A DNA stretch of 61,940 bases, filler included, from Basidiobolus ranarum (lineage: Eukaryota): the NCBI GenBank assembly GCA_040143965.1. It is 12 parts of 12 records of this genome, joined end to end, with 100 filler letters (N's around TTAATTAATTAA, not from the genome) between each part and the next. Parts side by side here need not be neighbours in the genome. Positions count along the whole stretch, not along the records: positions 15,543 to 20,618 come from JASJQH010008598.1; 11 more parts are not named here. One strand, 5' to 3'. The notes beneath the pieces are model-generated. The model was not told where the DNA came from, did not search any database, and was given only the letters and a program-made list of their open reading frames with translations. The position numbers and the translations under genes were made by a program. Numbering within the stretch: the stretch's first letter is position 1; the number at the start of each line of letters is the position of its first letter. Below, piece after piece: positions 1 to 56,788 of the stretch.

Positions 1-692
1 TTCAAAGTGTTGAAATTAGTCCCAAAGGTAAAGGCAAGCAAAAAGCCGCACAAACACCACAAAGCACCCTCAGTAGTGTCACACTACAAGGATGTACAAA
101 AATAGTCAAAGTGCTTGAGGAGTATTTTCAAAAGTATGAAGGGAAAAACACAATGCAAGTATGCAGAAAGTGGCTTCAGAAGAAGAACATTCAACTTGAC
201 ATTCAGTCTGGTGTTGACTATGCAGATATCTGGGAAGAACTTAATACAGAGTGGCACAATATTGCAGGGTATCCGCCAGATAGCTGGAAGAATGTTGATT
301 CAGTAACATTACTACAATGGTTGGCTTTGATGGAGACATTGATACAAACTTGTGTTGTATATGAGCTAAACCTTGGGTATGAAGAACTCTATAATAATAT
401 TCAGGAGAATATATCAAAGAAACTAGGGATTTCAAAGTGACAAATTAGCACTCAAGTAGTAAATGTGTAAAATTTGAGTTATTTTTTTGCACATGTGTTG
501 ATCCATAGCTTTCTAAGATTCTAGCCAATCATGTGCTACCATTTTGCAAGATCTTGAAATTTCACTGCTGAAAGTGAAAAAATTGATTAAAATCAAATCT
601 AACTTGACCATTTTATGATGGTAAGTAAATGGTCAATCAAAAATGGATTAAAATTGTGATGGTTTTCTTACAATAACAATCCTCAAATTTCT
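1..692 (+). mobile_element. Unclassified multicopy coding repeat ('family X'), 3' part including 109-codon ORF 111-440
   Basis: Aligns by eye with the reverse complement of ~54012-54705 on another contig; ORFs 111-440 and 54257-54595 translate to near-identical proteins; nearly CpG-free. Confidence 0.75.
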
Positions 693-5083: not shown

Positions 5084-5183
5084 NNNNNNNNNNNNNNNNN
5101 NNNNNNNNNNNNNNNNNNNNNNNNNNNTTAATTAATTAANNNNNNNNNNNNNNNNNNNNNNNNNNNNNNNNNNNNNNNNNNNN
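5084..5183. other. Artificial contig spacer N44-TTAATTAATTAA-N44 (first of 11)
   Basis: Identical 100-nt spacers at 5084, 10264, 15443, 20619, 25794, 30966, 36133, 41300, 46465, 51628, 56789; core has stops in all six frames; contig lengths fall from 5083 to 5052. Confidence 0.98.
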
Positions 5184-10080: not shown

Positions 10081-11049
10081 ATGGGATTACTACTTGCAAA
10101 ACCAATAAAGTTTGACACTGCAGAGCATATACCATGGTTTTATACGCCCTATCCACTCACTAGAGGCCTATAGCCACATACACACATACCAAATTGGTAA
10201 GAACCTATATCATTCTTGCACACTGACAACTTTGAAATTCAGCTAACCTTAACAATCTTAGTTNNNNNNNNNNNNNNNNNNNNNNNNNNNNNNNNNNNNN
10301 NNNNNNNTTAATTAATTAANNNNNNNNNNNNNNNNNNNNNNNNNNNNNNNNNNNNNNNNNNNNGTGATTTACTGTTTGGTTAGACTGCATGTCTGATTGA
10401 CAAATGATGGTCATTACTGATTCAAATACAGTAGCAATATATAGCTAAGATGCACAGACGCGCTTACTTGAAGACACAGCCCAGATCCAATTAATGCATC
10501 ATCAACAGACTTTGTGGCAATCCATTTCATTTAATAGAACCTGTCGGCATATGCATGCCTTGCTCACACTGAGGCTGGCTTTGAGTAATGTTGATGGCGA
10601 AATGATTCCGAGCACATCTCCTTAATCCCAGACAACATGTTACCGCTACCCCAGAGGCACACTCTTATTCGCACCCTTATATTTCCCATTGCTACATATC
10701 CATCTGTTCCTTAACACATGAGCAGCTGATCTAACAAATCACTCTATCAAGGCTATTGTATGATTTCAACCACACAATTAGACTTAGTCATCAAATGGTG
10801 TCGTAATGCGAAATTGAGCCAGTGGCCTTTCACGTATATAATGTAACTTGGGGATACTCGTTTATTAGTCAGTAAATTAGATATATTATATATATACATG
10901 TGATATTGGCTCAGAATCATATTTTATATCTTGAAGGGAATATTGAGGCCTGGGAAATATTCGGGAGCAATGATGTTTAGAAGGCGGGCAGCGTAGCTGT
11001 CTCTTCACTTTGAACTAAACATTTCTTGATAATCAACTTGTACGTAAAT

Positions 11050-13741: not shown

Positions 13742-15440
13742 GTCAAGAACCTTCAGAGTAACACCTGGTTTTGGTTTTTCCATGATTGACACAAATCCAG
13801 GTGATTTTGGGCAAGATTGCACACAGTTTCCAAAATATTAAACCACTCATCATCAGAGCAAGTGATGGCAGCTCTGACATTCAGAGTCTTTTGGTTTGCT
13901 GGTTTTCCTATGAGATTTTTACTTTCATGTGCCCAAGCAATTTTGGGTTGTTGTGTAGGCTTAATGGTCCAACACATATTCCACTCTGCTATGATTGTCA
14001 TGGTGACATTCATATGTATGTTGTGGGATTGATTGAAATCCCATATGAGAATGGACGGAGGGAGCAGCATATTGCTGTAGCTCAAGTACAGCATTCTGAA
14101 GATCTTGTATAATTGTTGAGTGACTCTCTAACTGTTGACTAGTTGCTTCCAAACACTGCATTAACTGTGATATTGCGGCATTATTGCTTGTCAAGGCCTG
14201 TATAGCAACTCCCTAGTTTTTACTTATGATTGCATACAAATCATTATGGTGTTCTGCTTACAATTCCCTTATTGTAATAATTCTATCCAAATTTTTGAGG
14301 GAGGGTTGTTCAATAGTGGGCAAAGTAGCCATTTTGGAAGTTGATGGTCTTGACAGTGTTTTGGTTGAACTTTGCTCAACTAATGATTTACCATGTAATT
14401 TGGGGATTACAATCTCATCGCTTGCACTATTGCTAGCTAGGAACACATCTGGTAAATTGATTAATGCTTCATCATTACTTGAGTTTGTTTCTGGCCTCTT
14501 AATGCCTTCCAAAGTGAATAGTGGATAGCTAGACTGCTCATCAACTAAGCCCTCTGTTCATGCCGGTTTTTTTCCATTTGTGCCAGCTGGCTTTGGCTTA
14601 GAAGCTGATTTTGACTTACACTTTAAATGCTCTTTGAATGGCATTGAAATTTCAAATGGTAAACTTGGTGTAATGAGATTGCTTAGGAACAGCTTATAAT
14701 AAACCAAAATCACCATCCATGACCGGAAATATCTTGTAAATCCCCTGATGCCTCATCTGTGACACTGACTCAGAATCCACTGATGATTGTGATGGGCTAT
14801 ACCTAAAATACAACCCTTACATGGGAGGTGTTCTTTTTTCCTCAATAACCTTCTCATGGCTCAATACAAATGTTTAAAGAAGCCCTGCTATTACTGTTGC
14901 AAATTCTTGTGCTATGAAAGCCAGAGGCTTCATAGAAAAAATAATCACAAGCATGGTCACTGTACAAGGCCATCAGCTGCACAAAGCCTGGTGTATAACA
15001 ACAGTAATAAGCATAGGTAACACTGCCAAAAGTCAAGATACTGTGGAGTTACCACAGTTATATGACCAGAATTATGTAGGTCAAAATGCAACTTTGGTCA
15101 AACAGTAAGTCCAGACAACTTTGAGGACTTGCTGCTAGATGTTGACCTTGGTTATTCCAATATGGATGGTAGTATATCAGAAGTTGATAAAGCACACAAC
15201 GGTTTTGTTATGGACTCTTTGTTATTGGCAAACATTAGTCCACTCATAAGACTTACAGTAAAGAAAGAAGCTTTGATTATTGAGGAGTGGAGAGTTTGAT
15301 CCAATCTTAGCAACCAGGTGTTTATTGGTTTTCTTACACTTTTACCACAGTTGATTGGTAACTGTTGCTTATCACAGACCTGGTACAAGTGGAAAACACT
15401 TGTCAATCATTTGACTTATAATCCTTCAGTAATTAAAATG
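13720..15440 (-). mobile_element. Family X repeat copy (decayed coding sequence)
   Basis: 13720-14400 aligns with 55075-55750; 14500-15440 aligns with 39520-40450; many stops and frameshifts; few CpG. Confidence 0.8.
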
Positions 15441-15699
15441 CCNNNNNNNNNNNNNNNNNNNNNNNNNNNNNNNNNNNNNNNNNNNNTTAATTAATTAANN
15501 NNNNNNNNNNNNNNNNNNNNNNNNNNNNNNNNNNNNNNNNNNATATTGGATAGTTCAAACTCATCCAAATTTCCCCAAAAAAAGCTCAGTTTACTCCCAC
15601 AGATGTTCTGAACACAACCATAGTGTTAGTTTTCTGTATTTCCACCAAAATGTATAAATCCTTCATTTCTGGACAATAAACAATTATCTAACAAAAGCT

Positions 15700-16200
15700 A
15701 TTCACAACGCCACTTTTCCAAAGTTCCTCCAAACAGCCCAAATTTACCCACTACTTATATCTTATGTAACTTGATAATCTATGGTACTTCTTTTCTACCA
15801 ACATCTATCATCCATGATGAATTACTACTCAATATTTTTTCTTTCCATAATTTTTACTCAGCAAGATTAATTATTCATTAATATCTTCTATGATTTAGCA
15901 TATACTAAACTTCTTTACTAAACCTTCTTATTGACAATGGAAATAATTCATTGATTTGGCAATTGATTTCATGAAAGGCTTTGCTCAATGCCTATTCTAG
16001 ATAACATGATGATTACTTGCCTAACCCATGATAGAATCAGTGATAAATATTCTTCAAGCTAAGCCACTATCATTCTCTGATAGATATAACTAACTTTAAT
16101 TTCTTCCAATTATGTTGAAAATCAATGAATGCAACAAAAATATCTTTCTTATTTCTTTGATTAAATGCCTTTGATATGTCAACTTTATCCAACAATAGCA
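15700..16200 (-). mobile_element. Highly degenerate non-LTR retrotransposon RT remnant
   Basis: KKDIFVAFIDF motif resembles the LINE RT '(V/L)FIDFxKAFD' block; surrounding frame broken. Confidence 0.35.
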
Positions 16201-18419
16201 ACTCTACCTCTAGCCCTGGCTCTGGTGAGATTCTTCTTAGCGGTTGGTACTGGTCAATAGAACCTGCTAAGACTGCACTAGCCACCTATCAGCAAGGAAA
16301 CTCAAAAGCTTTATGCCCCAAGTGTCTCACTGATCATTGATTTTGCAAGTACTCAAATGGAACTGGAAAATCCACCTATGGTTGCTTTAAATGCAAGAAA
16401 TGCTTCACTAAGCACAAAGCATCTCTGTTTTGAACTTTGTGCCTGTCACTACCTGAAATCATACTCCCTGCCAATAAATCCACCTGTCAACAAGAAAAAT
16501 CTGCAACACTGCCTCAGGAAGCCAATGATAACATGCTGAGTGCTACTGAGAATAAATAACTTCTCATTTGTTCCACAGATGAAAGTCTTTCCAGAATATC
16601 ATGCTTCAAGCAGGAATAATGGACATTATCACCTGTTTGATTGGGCCTGATGGACTACAGTCATCAACATGCACATTACTAGTTCTGTATCCATAAAGAT
16701 AGGTATCATAAAGATAGGTGTGAGGTATAATGTACTTAAATAGCACCCCAAGTATGATTTTAGTACATAGCAATGTGAATTACCATATGCACACAAATGC
16801 TTCATGATACAAAATTGTTTATCCTTTGCTGAATAACACTCAACCAGCAATTGAAAGTTGCTCTATGTAATGGGTTGGCATCACCAAGTTCTTACTCAAA
16901 TAAGGTTGTAACTATATGTATAACAAGTATCCATATTTTACACCATTCCTCTAGCTGGGAAGGAAGATTGGCTAAACAGAATGCTAAAAGGATGTGACTA
17001 AATCACATAAGTACCAAAGGAGGGGTTAAGACATCCTTAGCTTAAATACACAACCTATGCATGCTTAAACAAACTTCCAAAAGCACAAACCACACATGCT
17101 CAGCATGAAAAATGATGATGCTTCTAGGACCATTCTGCAACTCAGCATCATCTGCCTAATCTTTCTTGTTTTCTTGGATCTTCAATTGGTTACCATAATA
17201 AACCTGGCAAGAGCAGCATTCTCTGAGAGTAATTGTTTACATCATCTCTTCAGTCAATATATGGCCTAAGTTTCAATACAGTCTTTGTTAAAGCTACTCT
17301 ATCAGCCATTTCTTCACACCATGACTGTTTGTAATGGCTGCAAATCTAGCACATATGTATAAACATTCATTAAGATAAAGCATAGCAAGGTATTGAAACT
17401 TGCATTAAGAACCATGTTATGCTGGTATAGAATTGCTACCATATCAAGTAGCTTGGCTATTTTGTGTAAGAAAATAGCCAATAATGGCAGCCATAACTTT
17501 TATCCCTGGTTGATCAGGCCAGTGACAGTATGCTGTATTGCCATATCCACATCAATAATATATGCCTATCATAGGGTAATATGCTAAAGGGTTTCAATTC
17601 CATTGTATTTTGAGTGTCAACTTTGCTACTATACCATCTAGACAAAGGATTATCACCAATTATTTCTCAACTGATAAATTTATGGTATGCTACACCATCA
17701 AAGGATCACTCTTGGTATAAATATGGGTCCATATTGGGTGGCCAGACCAGAATATATAGTATAAATATCCCACAGTATCACTATTGTGACTTACTTTGTT
17801 TAAATAAATGCTCTGATATATAAATATATTAATGCTCCCAAAGATACCTTGGTTTTCCTAAAAAGGCCTCAGTACTCTGAAATATGTCACTATGGTACTA
17901 CATCCTTGCACTCAAATATGCCTAGTGTCCTCAGTGAAGGTCAGGGTGTTTTTTACTGAGATATACTATGCATATTTTCCTAAGAATACATACTAATGGT
18001 TGACCACACTACCATACAGCTTGTATCCAAATGACCATTTGTTGTTCCTTCAACATTGAATCCAGTATCTTTTATAACCAATGCCGCTTTCAAATGTCAC
18101 AGGTTACTTTGAAATTGATTTCTTTGTTAGATTTTGTCAATGCATATATGTAAATTGGATTTTAATCTCTTTATTGGAAACAAAGAAAACTAAATACAGT
18201 CACATGTATAAATCCAGTTTGAACTTGATTACTTTGTAATTCATTTAGTTACTCATTGTCATTACACAATCAATAATAAACAAGATCAATACCAGGATTG
18301 AACAAAGTATTGCTAAACCAATCACTAACCAAATGCAGGATTGAACAAAATATCACTAATCAAACAGCAAACCACTAATTGCTATTCAAACCAATTCTCA
18401 CTTCCAAATACCAAAACAT

Positions 18420-19700
18420 ATGCTACTCCACTATTAGTATCAATAGAGTCATATCAGATCCCTTTCCTAGACACAGGGGCCTTTTCCAAGGCTCACTTCT
18501 TTACCCTTTCCTGTTCAATATCTATATTGATGATCTAGCTGTTTCTCTGAATGCCAGATATACTTCCTCTATTGTCCATCTGCATTGCTCTTGGCTGATG
18601 ATATTCAGTTTTTTCCCAAAAATTAATCACATGCTCAGGAAATGCTGGATATGATTAGTCTCTGGTTCTTCCATAATGGGATGGTTCCTAACCCTTCAAA
18701 ATCTGCCTATGTGGGTCCTAATATGGATTAGAGCCTTCAGCTTGAAGGAATTTCCCTACCATCTCCTACTTCTTAAGCCTACCTTGGTCTCCTAGTCACT
18801 TAGCATGGTATTGATTGGGATGGTCATATATTGAATTGTGTAGATAAATCTTCCCACTCATTGGGTTATCTCCAGCTGAAAGGCAGCAGATGGCCTTGAC
18901 TGGTTAGGCTGCACCTTTTCAGATCCTTTGTCAGGTCTCAGTGGGAATATACTGCTCCCATGATGCTAGTAGCTGCACCTCAGGATCCATTTAGGAATTT
19001 TGAGTCTCTTCAAAGAAGTGCTCTTGGATGGGTTGTCAATGCTTCAGTCTTTCACTGCAAATGATACCATAGAATATTTCCTAGGCTCACTGGTATTGAG
19101 TTAGTACCAGACAGATTTGAGACTCTAGGGATCAGATTTGGATTACACCTTGCCAAATCACTCTCTTCCAATCCAATCAGGACAATGGCAAATGCCAAAT
19201 ACTACAAAGAAGTTGCTGCTACTGCTCTTTCCCTTATCAAGAAGAAAATCAACAAGTCAGCAGGTTACATCCAATATGTTGCCACCAACAGTGGTAACTC
19301 TCCAGACAACAAGTTGTCACTGTCTTGGGCTATGCTTCAGAGAAAAGTAAGAAATCTATCCAAAAGTAAGACTTCAAGAGATAGAATTTCTCATATTAAA
19401 GAGGAGAGCCATCATACACACAGTGGTGCTGATGTATTGCTCTACATAAAAGATAACTACTTTGCCATTCAAGCCATCAGATGGAGAATCAATACTTTCT
19501 CTCTGGGCCTAAAATGTCCAATATGCCATCATCCCTTCTATTACACTCATGCTGAAAAATGCTTTGGGTTTTAAAGATACAGATGCTCTCTTTCAGTTTC
19601 ACACACAGAGGGCTTTGAAGCAAAGATTGAGTGCATTGATTACTGCCATTAGTCCTGACCTACTCCTAGTCCACTTGAGTTGATGGACTCTGTGATTCAA
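18420..19700 (+). mobile_element. Non-LTR (LINE-like) retrotransposon 3' remnant: RT and C-terminal Cys/His region
   Basis: GLFQGSLLYPFLFNIYIDDL, then (frameshifted) LADDI, NGMVPNPSKS, YLG, FVRSQWEY and CPICHHPFYYTH; several stops. Confidence 0.85.
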
Positions 19701-19766
19701 TTGCTTTGGTCCTACATATATAGATATATTGGCATAAGAACTATATCCATTTGTTTTTGCACCAAC

Positions 19767-20495
19767 TTAGAGTTTAAAATTATCTGCACCTTTATTGTCC
19801 AGCGTAACTGCAGCGTAAATGTAAATATCTACATAACGTTCGTCTTTAGGCAACATATCATGAGAGCCACTGCGAATAACTCTTCCGACAGCCTGTTCAA
19901 CAGTACTGTCATTCCAGTGAGGGGTTATTCCGTGGAACTGTTTAACATTTTTTAGAGTTATACTTTCGCCAATTACTTTACTTCCCAAAAGTATCTGAAC
20001 ATACGCCCCATTTTTGTTTTTCGGAGAATTAAAACCTTCAAGACGATTTTCGTTGTTTGGTGATATTTCAGTGCTTCCAACACAGAACTTGTACCATTTT
20101 CCTTTGTCTATGTTATCCAAACTGTAGCCAAGATATAACTTGTATCCATGTTTTTCTAATATATGACTTAATATCATCAAACCTGATTCCCAAACCTTGT
20201 CTACAAAAACAAATGCTGGGTATCCTTTATTGGTGCTAAAGTGTTCCAGGAAGCTATAATATTTGCAGGAAGACATGTGCAACAGATCTCCGCTTAATTA
20301 CTTTTGAGATTCTTCTGGTAAGAAATATTTTTGGTATGTAATTTTTTTGGGGAGGTTATCAGAAGAAGTTATAATTTTATGCTGTTTGGTTTGGTACTAT
20401 TTAGTTGTGTTAATGGTTCTACCATACAATCCATTGGGAAACACAAAGGAAGAGATTTGCAAAAAACTTCTGTCAATGTCATGAGAAGCAATACC
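19767..20495 (-). pseudogene. Viral-type SF2 helicase fragment (poxvirus D6R/D11L, VETF-S/NPH-I family; NCLDV or linear-plasmid origin), C-terminal half
   Basis: SSCKY, FNSPKNKNGAYVQILLGSKVIGESITLKNVKQFHGITPHWNDSTVEQAVGRVIRSGSH...RYVDIY; same frame continues upstream through two stops (20298-20300, 20397-20399) to QISSFVFPNGLYG; no introns. Confidence 0.85.
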
Positions 20496-20751
20496 TAGCC
20501 TCTAAGACACCTGTGCCCCTTAACACTATATTTACATCCTAAGAACAGGACTACATTGGTCATCAAGTTAAGTATACATATGATCCAGTTTTGTCACAAT
20601 ATCTTAGAAGATTGATGTNNNNNNNNNNNNNNNNNNNNNNNNNNNNNNNNNNNNNNNNNNNNTTAATTAATTAANNNNNNNNNNNNNNNNNNNNNNNNNN
20701 NNNNNNNNNNNNNNNNNNTGAGAAGTAGACATTACAGAGAGTGCAAGCTCG

Positions 20752-31949: not shown

Positions 31950-33350
31950 TAGCTAACTTGTCTCGGATGAACTTCTAGAGGATAGTGACCATGATATTCT
32001 GAAACCATGCAACAGAGTTGATTCCTCCTTGGCTGAGTCTTGTCTTTCTTGGTAGCCCAAAGGGAGTCTGAAGCCCAAACATGCCTCTTGAGGTTTTATC
32101 ATCAGGTGTTTTGTCATATCCTGAGTATAGATCATAGGTTGAATATATGGGAGCTCCAGCAAAGCTCTCTGCAAGTTTGTGAATGGAAAGAAGTACTCCA
32201 GCATCTCCAATGTTACTGCATTAGCTGGCAGCATGTCTTTTATAAATCTCAGTTTGCCATTCTTCTTTTTTGTGACAAACCAATGATTGGCATAAGATCC
32301 ATAGCATAATTGTATGATTCCATCTTTAATCTTACTCTTTAGAAGAGCATGCACATCTGGTTGTAGGCCTCCTGGTAATGGATAGGGCTTAAGTGACAAT
32401 GGTTTGTATTCTACATTTTGAAATTTATTGGGGCTTCAACTGAGGGCAATGGTAGTCGCAGTTGTTGGTCATTGTATGCAAAGGCTCTGTCATGTCTAAC
32501 AATTATATTACTAAAAAGTTTGACCTTTTGATGGCTGAGGTTGCTATTGCAATCTTGATGGTGGCTAGTCTCTCTGGAGCTAGTCTGTGTTAGTGTTGCT
32601 TGTCTGGTGGCTCTCTTTCCTGATTGGATGGTCTGGTTTTATTGGTGAGTGGTTCAAGATAAAGCTTTACTTTTGTAGAAACAGTCTTGTACTTGGTCCT
32701 AACACTTGCCTTGTGTACTTTTGGTCCTAAAGCAGCTCCCCAAGCTAAGTGTGGGTTGGATGTGTAATACATTTGATAGAGAGTAACATCTTCAATGGTG
32801 CTTCTGCACACAATTTGAGCTCTATGGTCAATAGCTGGTGCTCCACTGAAGTTGGCAAGTAATCCTTGGTTGCTTCTGCAAATGATGTGCCAATCAAATC
32901 CAGCAGGATATTTAATGACCATTCCTCTTGCTTTTATCTTTCAAGGTCTTCCAATTAGTACATTGAAGTTGGCCTTCTGGCAGATAAAAACAGGAATAGT
33001 GTGCTCTACTCCTTGTATGTTGGTAGGAAATTCATGAATAACCCATAAGAGTGAGGAGACTCCAGTGTTGGCTTCACACAAATTCCAGTGTGTATGAATA
33101 TATACTGGAAGCAAAAGTTTGCATGGTAATGACTTTTAGAAATCCATTGGCTTTGCACAGATCTCTGACCCACTATCAATATGGCATGGTATAAGGTCTT
33201 CATTGATAAATTGCTTGGTAGGCACCATTGAAAAGCTGGTTTTGGCAAACTCCCCTAAGTCATAAATTCAGTAGGTATGGCAGTATTGTCCTTAGCTTTC
33301 TAGTAAGTGTGCTTTCACAAAGTTCTGGTCTTTTAGTATGGCAGGGTTGT
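31950..33350 (-). mobile_element. Ty3/gypsy protease-RT remnant
   Basis: ANFNVLIGRP protease tail; RT block YANHWFVTKKKNGKLRFIKDMLPANAVT; frameshifts. Confidence 0.8.
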
Positions 33351-36232: not shown

Positions 36233-39110
36233 AAGCAGCCATATCATCTGAAAAATTGGATGATGTACTATATACCAAATATAGACAAGAATCTACTCTC
36301 AGTAAGCCAAGCAACAACTCAAGGATGAAATTTGATGTTCAGTAAGGCTGGATGCACTATTACAATTCATCATAATACTAAGTTAGCTACGTGGGTCAAA
36401 ACTCAAAACTTATGTAAGCAAGATTCAACAAATTGCATTCTGAGCATAGAAACTTGGCCAAAACTGGTGAAATAAGCAGTCAAATGTGGCACAGAAGATT
36501 AGACAACATAGGGGTACACAAACTGACCCAAATAATCTGAAATCAGCTTCTTTCAGGCTTAGAAATTGAAAATAGCACTAAATTGGATCTATGTGAAGGT
36601 TGTATATATGGAAAACATACCAGAGAGCCATTTTCAGGCTCTGGAGAGATCAAATCCACTCAGAAATTTGCCCCAATTTATTCTGACATATGTAGGTTCA
36701 TAAAAGATGTCTCACTAGGTGGGAAATGGTACTTTATGATCTTTATTTATGACAAAAGAAGGTATACTTGTATTCCTTTTCAAATTCACATCTGAAGCCT
36801 TAGATATGTTCAAGCACTAAACAGCAGTGGTAGAGAAAGAATCAACACAAATAATAAGGGTACTAAGGAGTGAGAATGGTGCAAAATGCTGCTCTAATGA
36901 CTTTACCAGTTTTTGTTCTAATCATGGAACTGGACAACAAACTACTATACCTTGTACTCCACAGCAAAATGAAGTTGCAGAATATGCTAATAGGTCCATA
37001 GTGGAGATGGCAAGATCAATGTTATGTAATCAGAAGTTAGATTACCAATATTGGGCTGAATCTGTCTCCACTGCAGTCTATATCAAAAACTGATGCCCAA
37101 CAAGATTGCTACCTAATTTTACTCCATTTGAAGCCCTATATGGATCAAAATCCAGTGTGAATCAACTCAGGATCTTGGGTTACACAGCATATTGCCTAAT
37201 ACAGCTCAAAAACACTCTAATTTAGAACCCAAAAGCAGAAAATGCATATATCTTGGTTACTGTGATGGAACTAAGGCCTATATACTGTTTGATACCAAAA
37301 ATCAGAATTTAATAAAGTGCAGTGATGTGATTTGTGATAAAAAAGTAAAATTTTCACCTCAAATTACAGTTATGGATCCAGAAAACAAAAGCAGCACTAT
37401 TCAGGAAGTGGCTGATGATATTCCAGCTGTATCTGAGCACTATTCAACTGAAATTTCATTACCAATTATATTAAAGGATGATTCAGGACCTAGAAGTTCA
37501 TCCAAAAGGAGAAATAAGCCAGGAAACTGGTGGAACATTTCCAATGATCATGTATTTGCTCATGCAGCATTCTGTGACAGCCCACAGACACTAGATCAAG
37601 CTCTGGTGTTTCCAGAATCAAAATTATGGCAAAAAGCAATGTCTGATGCATTTTCCTCACTTCTTCACAACAAAACATAGGTTTCAAGTCCTCTACCATC
37701 AGGGAGATATCCAATAGGTAACAAATGGGTCTACAAAGTCAAGAACTAAGCTGATGGAACCATAGAAAGATACAAAGCAAGATTAGTTGCACAATGTTAT
37801 TCCCAGTCACCTGGAGTTGATTTTAATGAAACATTTGCTCCAGTAGCTAAGTTTAGCTGCATGAGATCAATACTAGCACCCTCTGCCTTCCATCACCTTT
37901 ATTTACATCAAATGGATGTAAAAACAGCCTTTCCAAACAGAAATCTAGAAAAAAGGATCCATAAGGACCATCCAGAAGGATTTGTTGACCCATAACATCC
38001 TGCTATGGTCTGAAAATGCAAAATTGCTACATGGACTCAAGCAAGCACCCAGGGCATGGTACCACAATATGATGCCTGTAAGTAATACTGGAATTCCAAA
38101 AATACATTTTTTAAAGCAAAACAACTGGAAATAGGCTTCTGATCTTGGCATTATATCTGTATGACTTGATTATGTCAACAAATGCTCTGGAAGCCATTAA
38201 TTAGACAAAAGTACCTTCTCAAACCAGTTTCAGATAACCAATATGGGTGAATTAAGTTTTTCCCCAGAATTGCAGTAAATCCTGCCAAATCTGTCTAGAT
38301 ACATCCTTACCATCCTAAAGCACAATAACACAGAGAACAGTAACCCCATATCAAAACTGATGGATCACAATATGGAATTAATCAAATTTGATAGGATTTA
38401 GCCCAACACAATTTAAATCAAAACCAGAAGTGTCCTTATCATACCATGATGGGTAGTTTCATCTCTAAGATTGTTGGAACACCTCTCAAGACTGCTGTGG
38501 CAGTGGGAACTGTCAGCCAATATCTCAAAAGTTCAGGATCTGGGGGCAAAACTGCAAAAATACAAAATTTCATGTATTTGAGAGGAACTGTTGATCTAGT
38601 TCTGGAATACTCTGGTAGTCCTGAAGCACAGAATTTTGAAGGCTACAGTGATGTAGACTGGGCAAGATATACTGATGATGGAGGATCAATAATTGTGTGT
38701 GCTTCTCTCTGTGGTAATGGAGCCATAAGATGAAATAGCAGGATGTTACCAACAATAACACTTTCAGCTGCACAAACACAATATATGGCTGCCTCTGCTA
38801 CTACCCAAGAAGCTATGTAGTTAAGGAATTTATTCACAAGCTTAGGATATATGCAAAAATATGCTATTACAGTATTTGAAGGTAATCAAAGTTGCATTTC
38901 ATTAGCTAAGAACCCTATATTTCTTGCTAGAACAAAACAAATGTGAAGTAGGTTTCATTTTGTTAGAAAAGAGATAAAGAATGATATAATTTCACTTGTC
39001 TATTATACTACTGAAGTAATGATTTCTGACATCTTAGCCAAAACTTTAGCTAGAGCACAATTTCAATCAGTAAGGTATAAGCTAGGTCTAGGCAAAATAC
39101 AAAATAATTA
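36233..39110 (+). mobile_element. Decayed Ty1/copia pol (pre-integrase, integrase, RT, RNase H)
   Basis: WHRRL, CEGCIYGKH, IYSDIC, LRSENG, TPQQNEVAE, YWAE, KWVYKVK, YKARLVA, ETFAPVA, HQMDVKTAF, GYSDVDWA, NQSCISLAKNP; many stops. Confidence 0.95.
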
Positions 39111-40470: not shown

Positions 40471-41299
40471 TGATAAAAGTGTTTAGGGGATTTGGAAGTG
40501 TTTTGGACAAGATTTGGATTTGTGAATTAACACTTAAGTTTTATTAAATTGAATAGGTCCTATTTATAGTTTACTATGAAATAGGACTATTGGACATGCT
40601 TAGATCATTACAAACATGCCTGTTAAGCATGGGTGAAAGTTTGAGGTGATTTTGAGAAGTTTTGAGAAAATTGTGAAAATTGGTAAAAGTGATCTAATTG
40701 ATATTTCTATCAATTAGAGTAATAAACACACATTTTTGAATGACCAAATTGAGTGCTAAATTATCAGAATATGAATAAACTAACTCCTAAATATTGCGTT
40801 GCTATTTACTTAATTTCAATATTCCCACTCAACTAATTATTTTGTATTTCTCTTAAACCTAACTTATATCTTAATAATTCAAATTGTGCTTTAACTAAAG
40901 GTTTAGTTAACATATCAGCTATCATTTTTCAGTAGGGCAATAGACAAGTTCAATTATATCATTCTCTATTGCTTCTCTAACAAAATGATGCCTAATATCT
41001 ATATTTCTTGTTCTAGCATGAAATGTAGGATTTTTAGCTAATGAAATACAACTTTGATTATCTTCAAATACAATAATAGCATGTTTTTGCATGTATCCTA
41101 AGTCTGTAAATAACTTCCCTAACCACATAGCTTCTTGTGTAATAGCAGAGGCAGCCATAAACTCAACTTCTGTAGTGGAAAGTTCTATGGTTGGTTGCTT
41201 CTTACTATTCCAAGTTATGGCTTCATTACCATAGAGAAAAGTGTATCCAGTTGTTGATCTTCTATCATCAAGGTTTCTTCCCCAGTCTGCATCACTGTA
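40471..41299 (-). mobile_element. Copia 3' end: RNase H, PPT (GAGTGGGAA) and LTR 40471-40821
   Basis: YSDADW, RRSTTGY, SKKQPT, EDNQSCISLAKNPTFHARTRNIDIRHHFVRE, ADMLTKPL. Confidence 0.93.
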
Positions 41300-41399
41300 N
41301 NNNNNNNNNNNNNNNNNNNNNNNNNNNNNNNNNNNNNNNNNNNTTAATTAATTAANNNNNNNNNNNNNNNNNNNNNNNNNNNNNNNNNNNNNNNNNNNN

Positions 41400-54009: not shown

Positions 54010-55750
54010 ACAGAAATTTGAGGATTGTTATTGTAGGAAAGCTGTGACATATTTAATCCATATAGGATTGACACTTTACTTACCATCATAAATGGATCAA
54101 GTTAGATTTGATATTAATAAATTTTTTCAGTTTCAGGAGTGAGATTTCAAGATCTTGCAAAAGAGTTGCACATGATTGGCTACAATCTTAGAGGACAATG
54201 GAGCAACACATGTGCAAAAAATGTAACTTAAATTGTACACATTTACCACTTGAATGCTAACTTGTCAACAATGAAATCCCTAGTTTCTTTGCTATATTCT
54301 GCCGGGCATTTTTATAGAGTGCTTCATACCTAAGGTTGAGCTCATATCCGACACAAGTTTGTATTAATAACTCCATCAAAGCCCACCATTGTATTAACAT
54401 TGCTGAATCAACATTCTTCCAGTTGTCTGGCAGATACCCTGCAATATTGTGCCACTCTGTATTAAGTTCTTCCCAGATATCTGCACAGTCAACACTAAAA
54501 TGAATGTCAAGTTGAATGTTCTTCTTCTGAAGCCACTCTCTGCATACTTGCATTGTGTTTTTCCCTTCATACTTTTGCAAATACTCCTCAAGCACTTTGA
54601 CTATTTTTGTATGTCCTAATATTGTGACACTACTGATGGTGCTTTGCAGTGTTTGTGCAGCATTTTGCTTGCCTTTACCTTTGGGGCTAATTTCAACACT
54701 TTGAAAAGTACCTGTTGAGGTTAGAGAGCCATTGTAGTGTTTTGCTGAAGTTTTGGCTTGTTGAAAGAAGCCAGGGGTTGCTTAAACTTCCAAGTTTAGC
54801 ACTCTTCCAACTGGTGTACCAGGTTCTATGGTAGAATTGAGCCTTTTTGCCAGTACATTTGACTCCAGAAGTACAGATTTTTGTATTGGTATGCAGAATT
54901 TGATAAGTGGAAGAGTAGATCCCAAACTCACTGGCTCCTTGGCTTTTCCCGTGGGCTCCTTGAAGACTTCTTTAGCACCACTTTTTTTCTTTCCAAGTCT
55001 TTAATTACTTTCAATATTACAATGTTTCATTAATAAGCCTATTTGAGCCCAATTGCCATTCGGCTGCAAAAACCCAGGATAAGCCACATGAAATAAGTCA
55101 TGAATCTTCAGAGTAAAGCCTGGTTGTGATGTTTTGCAATTGGCTTAAATCAAGGTGATTTTGGGCAAGATTCCACACAGTTTCCAAAATGTCAAACCAC
55201 TCATCATCAGAGCAAGTGGTTGCAGCTCTGAAACTCCAAGTCTTTTGGTTTGCTGGTTTTCCTATAATATTTCTACTTTTCTGTGCCCAAACAGTTTTGG
55301 GTCTTTGTGTAGGATTAATGGTCTGACACATTTTCTGCTCTGCTAGATTGTCATGACACTGCTGTATAGTTGTGGGAGTAATTGTAATCCCATATGAGAA
55401 CAGACAGAGCAAGCAGCATGCTGATATAGCTCAAGTACAGCATTCTGATGGTCTTGTATCATTGTTGAGTGAATCACTAACTGTTGACTAGTTGATTCAG
55501 AACACTACATGTATTGCTTTATTGTTGCATTATTGCTTGTCATAGCCGGTATAGCACTTAGTAGTTTTACTTTCAACTGCATGCAAATCACTATTGTGTT
55601 CTGCCTGAGATTCCCTTGTTGTAATAATTCTATCAAAATTTCTACAGAGGGGTGATCAATAGTTGGCAAAGTACCCATTTTGGAAGTTGATGGGCTTGAT
55701 ATTATTTCTGTTGAACTATGCTTCTGCAATTCACAAAATTTGCCATGGTT
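54010..55750 (-). mobile_element. Family X repeat copy, longest piece of the 3' ORF
   Basis: Overlaps both the 1-692 and 13720-14400 copies; largely continuous frame with a few stops and frameshifts. Confidence 0.8.
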
Positions 55751-55759
55751 GGTCACTTC

Positions 55760-56788
55760 TTAGTATTCCAAATTATTGCTCCATTACCGTAAAGAAAAGT
55801 GTAACTAGTGGTTAATCCTCTATCATTAAGGTTTCTTCCCCAGTCTGCATCACTGTTGCCTTCCAAATATTGTGCATCAAGAGTATCAGAGTAATCCAAA
55901 ACTAGATCTGCAGCTCCTCTCAAGTATCTAAATATTTGTTTTACTGCAGTTGTGTTCTGAGATACTGGAATATTGAGTCAATGGGTGACAGTTCTCACTA
56001 TGACAGCAATGTCTGGATGGGTACCAATCATTTTGTACATTTGAATACCCACCATTGGTGCTAAAGCAACTCTGTGGCTATGATTGATCATTTTGGGCCA
56101 AATTGGATGAAATTTTGACTTATTTCATATTGGGACCCATTGGGGTTGATGCAGGCTTGCTATATTCTCCATGTTGCAGCATTTTAGGATGTCTGGAGTG
56201 TATCTAGACTGATTAAGCATCATTTTCTGATTGGTTTTATCTCTCTTGCTCTGAATTCCAAGTAAATAACATAATTCACCCATATCACTCATCTGATATT
56301 GGTTTGACAGGCTTGTTTTTGTCTTATTGAGCATATCTAGAATATTTGTGGCTATTGTCAAGTCAGCCACATATAGTGCCCAGATAAGGATCCTATTTCT
56401 GGTTGTTTTGAAATAAATAATGTGATCTTCTATGAATATTTTGGAATTCCTGCAGTTCTAAATAGGCATTTATCTGGTTGTACAATGCCCTGAGTGCTTG
56501 CTTGAGTCTATGTAGCAGTTTTTTCAGTTTACTGATCATATCAGGGTGCTTTGATCAACAAATCAAGCAGGTTGCTCTATACAGATCTTGTCTTCTTGAT
56601 TACCATTCAGCCAGGCTGTTTTTACATCCATTTGATATAAATGAAGGTTATTGAAGGCTAAGAGAGCCAGGATTAATCTAATAGAGCCAAACTTAGCAAC
56701 TGGAGCAAAGGTTTCATTAAAATAAACTCCTGGAGTCTGGGAATAACCTTTTGTGACTAATCTTGCTCTCTTGCTTTCTATGGTCCTA
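55760..56788 (-). mobile_element. Decayed copia RT / RNase H fragment
   Basis: KARLV, ETFAPVAK, QMDVKTA, LKQA, LYVADL, MSDMGELCYLLGI, HPDIA, KYLRG, SDADW. Confidence 0.92.

Follow-up and report, generated by a model that had tools for sequence, protein, structure and literature searches.

A stretch of minus-strand coding sequence in the genome of the fungus Basidiobolus ranarum carries the motifs of a viral-type helicase, interrupted by stop codons. The locus raises the question of where this gene came from, whether from a cellular helicase of the fungus, from a virus of the NCLDV type or from a cytoplasmic linear plasmid, and whether the copy lies in the fungal chromosome. An earlier note on this DNA had proposed that a fragment of a giant virus or virus-like plasmid was captured in the nuclear genome. 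Based on the analysis described here, the sequence is very probably a dead endogenous fragment of a D6-like SF2 helicase, derived from a pithovirus-related, NCLDV-type element of fungi belonging to the "fundsalphavirus" group.

Position and state of the helicase relic

The window, i.e., the whole 61,940-base stretch of DNA that was analysed, is made up of 12 parts of ≈5.05–5.08 kb, joined by 11 artificial spacers of 100 bases (5084–5183, 10264–10363, 15443–15542, 20619–20718 and seven more). The spacers were recognised from 22 runs of N and have the form 44 N, TTAATTAATTAA, 44 N. The parts are separate contigs, so any reading that crosses a spacer is invalid. Three proteins from other parts are recorded on contigs of 5,052–5,063 bases, which suggests that every part is a complete contig from a fragmented, annotated assembly. 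The genuine context of the helicase relic is part 4 alone (15543–20618; 5,076 bases); the spacer at 20619–20718 (again 44 N, TTAATTAATTAA and 44 N) marks the join to an unrelated contig, and the sequence above 20618 belongs to that different contig.

The relic itself occupies ≈750 bases on the minus strand (19733–20483) and corresponds to approximately residues 316–565 of a D6/D11-like (VV D6-like) SF2 helicase of ≈950 aa. It covers the second RecA lobe with motifs IV–VI, and faint similarity may extend to ≈20510. The longest open stretch (19767–20297, minus strand) runs from stop to stop and comprises 176 codons plus the stop; a predicted protein in the ESM Atlas begins at its eighth residue, a methionine, and has 169 codons. 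Upstream of this stretch, the frame is interrupted by a TAA at 20298–20300 and a TAG at 20397–20399 (both minus strand), each of which is a sense codon in P0160, an intact relative described below. When P0160 was compared to the window with tblastn, its residues 316–553 aligned to 20483–19770 without gaps across both stops, with 192 of 238 residues identical; a different alignment gave 79.8% identity over 242 residues. The extension of the frame through two in-frame stops, which the earlier note had made by hand, is thus correct, and the motifs that it quoted are all present in the minus-strand translation of 19767–20618 (SSCKYY, FNSPKNKNGAYVQILLGS, GESITLKNVKQFHGITPHWNDSTVEQAVGRVIRSGSH and VDIY, with QISSFVFPNGLYG further upstream). 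Beyond the terminal stop at 19767–19769, ≈9 matching codons continue in another frame (QKQMDIVLM in the relic, HKQMDIVHM in the relative), placing a frameshift just past this stop, and the helicase homology ends at ≈19733 (19733–19769, minus strand).

No counterpart of P0160 residues 1–315 or ≈566–956 (≈390 C-terminal residues) was found in the window by tblastn. From the 5′ break of the relic, 135 bases (20484–20618) remain to the contig end; they have no assigned feature, and helicase homology was absent there at E ≤ 10 with P0160 and at E ≤ 0.5 with 83 family queries. Because the flanks at either end have no helicase homology, the relic is truncated on both sides inside its contig. The second RecA lobe (Helicase_C) can be recognised, including QAVGRVIRSGSH in the translation, and the ATPase lobe, i.e., the first RecA lobe with Walker A/B and motifs I–III, is missing. 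Within the relic, 31 of the 33 columns that are invariant among 29 family members are kept and two are changed; near-invariant columns number 38, and 35 of these are conserved. What survives is part of a family member and not a functional helicase; it is inactive today, and the 169-codon ORF is a by-product of annotation.

The rest of the contig (15543–18300) is A+T-rich (GC 0.35–0.37), filled with stops and devoid of any assignable gene or other viral gene. The GC content of the relic (0.352) is like that of its flanks (0.348–0.372). A Pfam search of three frames of 15543–19742, with stops read as X, gave zero matches; there was neither a second viral gene nor an unambiguous single-copy host gene on the contig, and blastn revealed no repeat in common with the other 11 parts. 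When the 157 ORFs that neighbour family helicases at other loci (see below) were compared to the window with tblastn, only the helicase found a match. The 83 family helicases gave 94 tblastn matches, of which the 12 that lay off the relic all had E ≥ 0.033 and were judged to be due to chance.

Next to the relic, on the plus strand, tblastn homologues delineate a decayed, 5′-truncated non-LTR (LINE-like) reverse-transcriptase remnant of ≈1.4 kb (18301–19665), the 3′ end of which lies ≈70 bases from the truncated 3′ end of the relic. It matches the C-terminal residues 577–991 of P0382, a 994-aa protein with PF00078, at 56–77% identity in two frames. The sole named relative is a "LINE-1 reverse transcriptase-like protein" from the zoopagomycete Smittium mucronatum (36–42%), and the Pfam RVT_1 match (E 0.0054) was below the cut-off. 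We considered a simple insertion of the LINE into a complete helicase gene, and rejected it, since the remnant is ≈1.4 kb long and no C-terminal helicase sequence occurs past it in the contig.

Several observations agree with the location in a fungal contig that had been proposed before: the relic shows 89% identity with a protein of Basidiobolus meristosporus, the LINE remnant has its named relative in Smittium, and a protein encoded on another contig of the window falls in the same cluster of at least 90% identity as a B. meristosporus protein. From the decay of the gene and its LINE neighbour, we infer that the relic has a chromosomal location. The contig might instead be a contaminant, or a chimera of free viral DNA with fungal repeats rather than an integrated copy: the assembly is highly fragmented (contigs of ≈5 kb), just 135 bases separate the relic from the end of its contig, and this contig carries no host gene. 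However, a virus able to replicate should not contain just the inner quarter of an essential gene, broken by two stops and a frameshift, and the nearest named relative belongs to the same fungal genus. Stops, frameshifts and long contigs were used as the same argument by Gong, Zhang and Han (2020; Virus Evol 6:veaa008, PMC7017919). We therefore consider contamination or chimerism highly improbable.

Other contigs in the window contain repeats of their own. Two pairs of similar ORFs occur on different contigs (1–440, plus strand, with 54257–54781, minus strand; and 13753–14127 with 55098–55430, both minus strand), e.g., QSVEISPKGKGKQ, and seem to stem from a host repeat. Fragments resembling LTR retrotransposons (integrase, RNase H and RT-like) could be seen by eye at 31953–32435 (minus), 37132–37680 (plus), 40922–41347 (minus) and 56125–56457 (minus).

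Helicase type and closest relatives

When the 176-aa frame of the relic was compared to all PDB chains at E ≤ 1, there were two matches only, to the vaccinia proteins VETF-S/D6 (7.8e-11) and NPH-I/D11 (5.9e-8), with the relic aligned to residues 325–479 of the D6 chain. Pfam recognised just the generic Helicase_C domain (PF00271; E 1.5e-7, 32.1 bits against a cut-off of 23.5), which was also found when the whole relic was read through with X at the stops (3.1e-7). A family profile, built from an alignment of 29 full-length relatives of the relic, matched D6 (PDB 7amv chain W) at 3.9e-33, with profile positions 47–581 aligned to chain residues 37–585, and D11 (PDB 6rfl chain Y) at 1.9e-29. These two vaccinia proteins are thus the best and second-best solved relatives. 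They differ from the family in that the family proteins are ≈300 aa longer and have a C-terminal domain of their own, and the relic differs further in having no ATPase lobe.

We also built an AlphaFold model of P0160 on the 29-member alignment (mean pLDDT 81.3, pTM 0.60). Its top fold match in BFVD was the "VV D6-like helicase" of Pithovirus sibericum (UniProt W5S4I8; E 2.1e-48, TM 0.55/0.48), a comparison between two predicted models of proteins that share just 19% sequence identity and have 1104 and 956 aa, respectively. Further BFVD matches were to Marseillevirus LCMAC102, a Solivirus, two Pithovirus MAGs and an ascovirus. Among the ESM Atlas neighbours listed for the relic, by features and by structure, all were viral, most commonly Nucleocytoviricota, with one structural neighbour from Uroviricota.

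A decayed paralogue of a cellular fungal remodeller of the SNF2/Rad54 type was considered as an alternative, and 10 of the 29 family members do pass the Pfam SNF2-rel_dom threshold. However, no cellular SNF2 chain was among the PDB matches of the relic at E ≤ 1, the family profile reached cellular SNF2 proteins at 1.8e-6 at best and in the N-terminal lobe only, compared to 3.9e-33 for D6, and every Atlas neighbour listed is viral. With the PDB, profile, fold and Atlas comparisons all pointing to a viral D6/D11-type protein, we rejected a cellular SNF2 identity, the probability of which is negligible. The D6/D11 assignment made in the earlier note, as opposed to cellular SNF2, is upheld by all four comparisons.

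An exhaustive search of 1.84 billion representative sequences yielded 6533 proteins at E ≤ 1e-3, including 36 at E ≤ 1e-30 (best E 2.0e-68), well outside what chance would produce; the best of these relatives were 67% identical, had 912–950 aa and were matched in their middle. A word-indexed search for longer proteins gave 106 proteins, the best of which was P0160, an intact protein of 956 aa that is 86% identical to the longest open stretch at full coverage and 81% identical over the whole relic. The contig that encodes P0160 has 3,016 bases, ≈145 more than its ORF; it could represent a transcript or else a short contig of DNA.

The closest named relative is a partial protein from B. meristosporus CBS 931.73 (ORX78497.1), with 50 of 56 residues (89%) identical to the relic; its last 459 codons are free of stops and align with P0160 without gaps (372/459, or 81% identity). 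Other named relatives came from Linnemannia elongata (three), Mortierella alpina (KAG9320969.1) and Spizellomyces "palustris" (two records), and there were also one streptophyte-like EukProt entry and one protein labelled as from a Phenylobacterium MAG. The family proteins range from 830 to 960 aa and share a conserved C-terminal domain of ≈400 aa. Twenty intermediate matches were checked by name: the first ten included five fungal records (Basidiobolus, Mortierella and Spizellomyces), the second ten had generic labels, and no plasmid (YKP4) or named virus sequence was found among the 20. One of the Spizellomyces sp. "palustris" proteins (P0159, YP_009659052.1, 577 aa) is a family member with a RefSeq YP_ accession, a type presumably given to organelle, plasmid or virus records, which would suggest that the gene was annotated on a non-nuclear replicon of the chytrid.

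A tree was calculated from 84 sequences: the relic (with X at the stops), 43 proteins from the collection, 16 helicases from the family loci described below and 24 distant NCLDV helicases (from IMG/VR and metagenomes), thinned from 84 loci at 45% identity. One fragmentary locus helicase (L093), cellular SNF2 proteins, killer-plasmid YKP4 proteins and named virus sequences, including Pithovirus, were left out. The tree was a quick IQ-TREE run with LG+G4 and no mixture model on 870 columns, of which the relic occupies 27%; five sequences had long branches, and a join of long branches was flagged in one case. The relic grouped with P0160 (SH-aLRT 99), followed by P0002 and P0001 (100). A clade of 59 sequences (100), set apart from the 24 distant helicases, took in the relic, all fungal records (Linnemannia, Mortierella and Spizellomyces) and the 16 helicases from compact loci.

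Gene neighbourhoods and the source of the gene

P0160 used as a single-protein query against viral contigs retrieved zero related loci, and it was a scan based on the alignment that identified 17 loci with family helicases, three from IMG/VR (L001–L003) and 14 from metagenome contigs (L081–L094). With one exception, a fragment of 2.8 kb, these loci had coding fractions of 0.77–1.0 and long uninterrupted ORFs; such compact contigs resemble replicons more than fossils. Their 157 ORFs were clustered, and the cluster representatives were scanned with Pfam. Besides the D6-like helicase, present in all 17, the most frequent neighbour was a divergently placed protein of 590–770 aa (15/17), the profile of which matched mRNA guanylyltransferases (1ckm, 2.4e-12) and cap N7-methyltransferases (4.5e-5), identifying it as a fused capping enzyme. 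The divergent, adjacent arrangement of helicase and capping enzyme was seen in L001–L003, L081–L092 and L094 (e.g., L090:1792–4104, minus strand). A classical family-B polymerase (PF00136 and PF03104) was present in eight loci, the N-terminal part of Rpb1 in seven, Rpb5 and HET-domain proteins in five each, and Rpb2, the C-terminal part of Rpb1 and UDG in four each. When 54 more clusters were surveyed through their representatives, further families came to light, e.g., MutS, dUTPase, DNA ligase, NucA/NucB and lysozyme. This census covered the locus flanks, which are sections of contigs of 35–92 kb in full length, and in the 25 of 38 Pfam families listed there was no capsid, A32 or protein-primed polymerase (PF03175), and no D5 primase-helicase was found among the ORFs scanned in the family loci. 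In the tree, the clades on either side of that of the relic included loci with this polymerase and RNAP context, so that the NCLDV-type gene context is seen in the sister and outer clades and not for the immediate clade of P0160, P0001 and P0002.

In yeasts, plasmid genes are known to have been captured in the nucleus. The relic might likewise be a captured YKP4 helicase gene (pGKL2 ORF4), its donor being a zymocin/pGKL2-type element, either a linear plasmid of the cytoplasm or a virus-like element. Heneghan, Salzberg and Wolfe (2026; PMC13348850) described killer-plasmid-like elements in Coemansia (Zoopagomycota), Cunninghamella, Umbelopsis and Podila (Mortierellomycotina), with YKP3 (a capping enzyme), YKP4 and a protein-primed polymerase. 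As in the loci of the relatives of the relic, an NCLDV-descended helicase there sits beside a capping enzyme gene on a fungal extrachromosomal element, the pairing that we observed in 15 of 17 family loci. One Umbelopsis element carries a HET-domain protein (PMC13348850), and HET ORFs occur in five family loci. Since the plasmid helicases themselves derive from Nucleocytoviricota (PMC13348850), likeness to D6 is compatible with a plasmid origin.

The polymerase argues otherwise. The protein-primed type defines the plasmids (PMC13348850), whereas the loci of the relatives have the classical PF00136/PF03104 polymerase (8/17) together with split RNAP genes in NCLDV style, and PF03175 was absent among the 25 of 38 Pfam families listed; it is by this gene content, rather than by comparison with YKP4 sequences, that the loci are set apart from the plasmids. 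The family proteins are also 830–960 aa long with a conserved C-terminal domain of ≈400 aa, the top fold matches are D6-like helicases from pithovirus and marseillevirus, and Basidiobolus is not mentioned by Heneghan et al. (PMC13348850). The statement in the earlier note that virus and plasmid could not be told apart is largely answered by the gene neighbourhoods of the relatives. We consider a plasmid source very unlikely; in all likelihood, the donor belonged to the NCLDV-type group that has already been described in the genus and was not a plasmid of the yeast type. The specific link of this donor to Pithovirus rests on the fold comparison and on Gong et al. (2020).

With an NCLDV-type donor, the intact protein of ≈950 aa would most likely have been a DNA-dependent ATPase of the transcription machinery of the element itself. 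Two features suggest this: likeness to VETF-S, which in vaccinia is the small subunit of the early transcription factor, and a conserved position next to capping and RNAP genes in the relatives. Viral DNA would have become integrated in the chromosome of a Basidiobolus-like fungus, where the helicase copy would then have decayed. In the sequence itself, the ATPase lobe and the C-terminal domain are missing, what is left has two stops and a frameshift, two invariant residues are changed, and the LINE remnant borders the 3′ break. The module of capping enzyme, helicase and RNAP in the family loci mirrors the YKP3/YKP4/YKP6 housekeeping set of the fungal killer plasmids, and the helicase family could stand near the origin of that module on the NCLDV side.

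The HET-domain proteins comprise nine ORFs (PF06985, 5.3e-15) on the compact contigs L084–L087 and L091 (e.g., L091:11970–13997, minus strand), and their presence on virus-like contigs argues for a fungal host. In one locus, the family-B polymerase (L088:3891–7391, minus strand) contains an intein (PF14890, 2.8e-7) inside the polymerase domain.

Relation to known viral elements of fungi

Gong et al. (2020; PMC7017919) screened 1,006 fungal genomes for DNAP and defined the "fundsalphaviruses" as endogenous NCLDV elements close to Pithovirus, found in 14 species from six phyla, with B. meristosporus, B. heterosporus and two Mortierella species among the hosts. The genes shared by these elements include D5, a D6/D11-like SNF2 helicase, a SAM methyltransferase, RPB2, RPB5 and a split RPB1, and premature stops and retrotransposon neighbours were noted (PMC7017919). 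The term "fundsalphavirus" was not found outside this paper in the literature searched, and it was also the only relevant report found on Basidiobolus and giant viruses, in a search that had supplements outside its scope. More recently, Myers et al. (2026; PMC13533422) found no NCLDV capsid gene in an hmmsearch of 40 non-zoosporic fungal genomes, and a single non-zoosporic match, in Dimargaris, in a wider search of Mycocosm.

The relic resembles these elements in several ways. It occurs in the same host genus and represents the same D6/D11-like SNF2 helicase gene, and it has similar pseudogene features, a retrotransposon neighbour and an affinity to Pithovirus. It groups with taxa named by Gong et al., being 89% identical to the B. 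meristosporus protein, with three Linnemannia elongata sequences and one from Mortierella alpina in its clade. As in an endogenised copy, its frame is broken by two stops and shifted once, and both ends of the gene are cut off. The same linked genes, i.e., DNAP, the methyltransferase/capping enzyme, the N- and C-terminal parts of RPB1, RPB2 and RPB5, are found in the loci of its relatives, with the exception of D5, which was unseen in the loci examined. Unlike the published elements, the relic is a lone fragment of 750 bases with no polymerase nearby and no other viral gene on its contig.

Endogenous NCLDV elements with a D6/D11-like helicase have already been published for B. meristosporus and B. 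heterosporus (PMC7017919), and the relic thus loses the role of pointer to an undescribed replicon that it had been given. Taken by itself, it is functionless, a further molecular fossil of viruses that were known from the genus before. Its value is that of a marker. The screen of 2020 would have missed it, because DNAP was the only probe, and other fragments that consist of the helicase only would have escaped in the same way. Zoopagomycota therefore probably harbour more of these relics than has been estimated.

Because close, intact copies exist, one may ask whether a replicon of NCLDV descent persists in terrestrial fungi. Three diverged copies of the gene are now apparent (the relic, P0160 and the B. 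meristosporus sequence), and two of them are free of stops. The 3,016-base contig of P0160, being barely longer than the ORF, would fit a transcript, and the intact copies together with the compact, gene-dense soil contigs that carry fungal HET-domain genes would fit an extant episomal element. The relic might then be one dead copy of a lineage still alive in Basidiobolus-like fungi, as an extant, NCLDV-derived episomal element of terrestrial fungi, a reading that we regard as speculative and rather unlikely. Such a living element would possibly be capsid-less, and might supply the relative that the killer-plasmid transcription module lacks on the NCLDV side.

Two of the soil loci are closely tied to known fungi. 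The helicase of L087 is almost identical to a Linnemannia elongata protein, with branch lengths of 0.04 and 0.02 in the tree, and that of L091 is identical to P0007, the 90% cluster of which includes the Mortierella alpina protein. Some of the soil contigs classified as viral may thus be chromosomal or episomal DNA of Mortierellaceae with intact genes.
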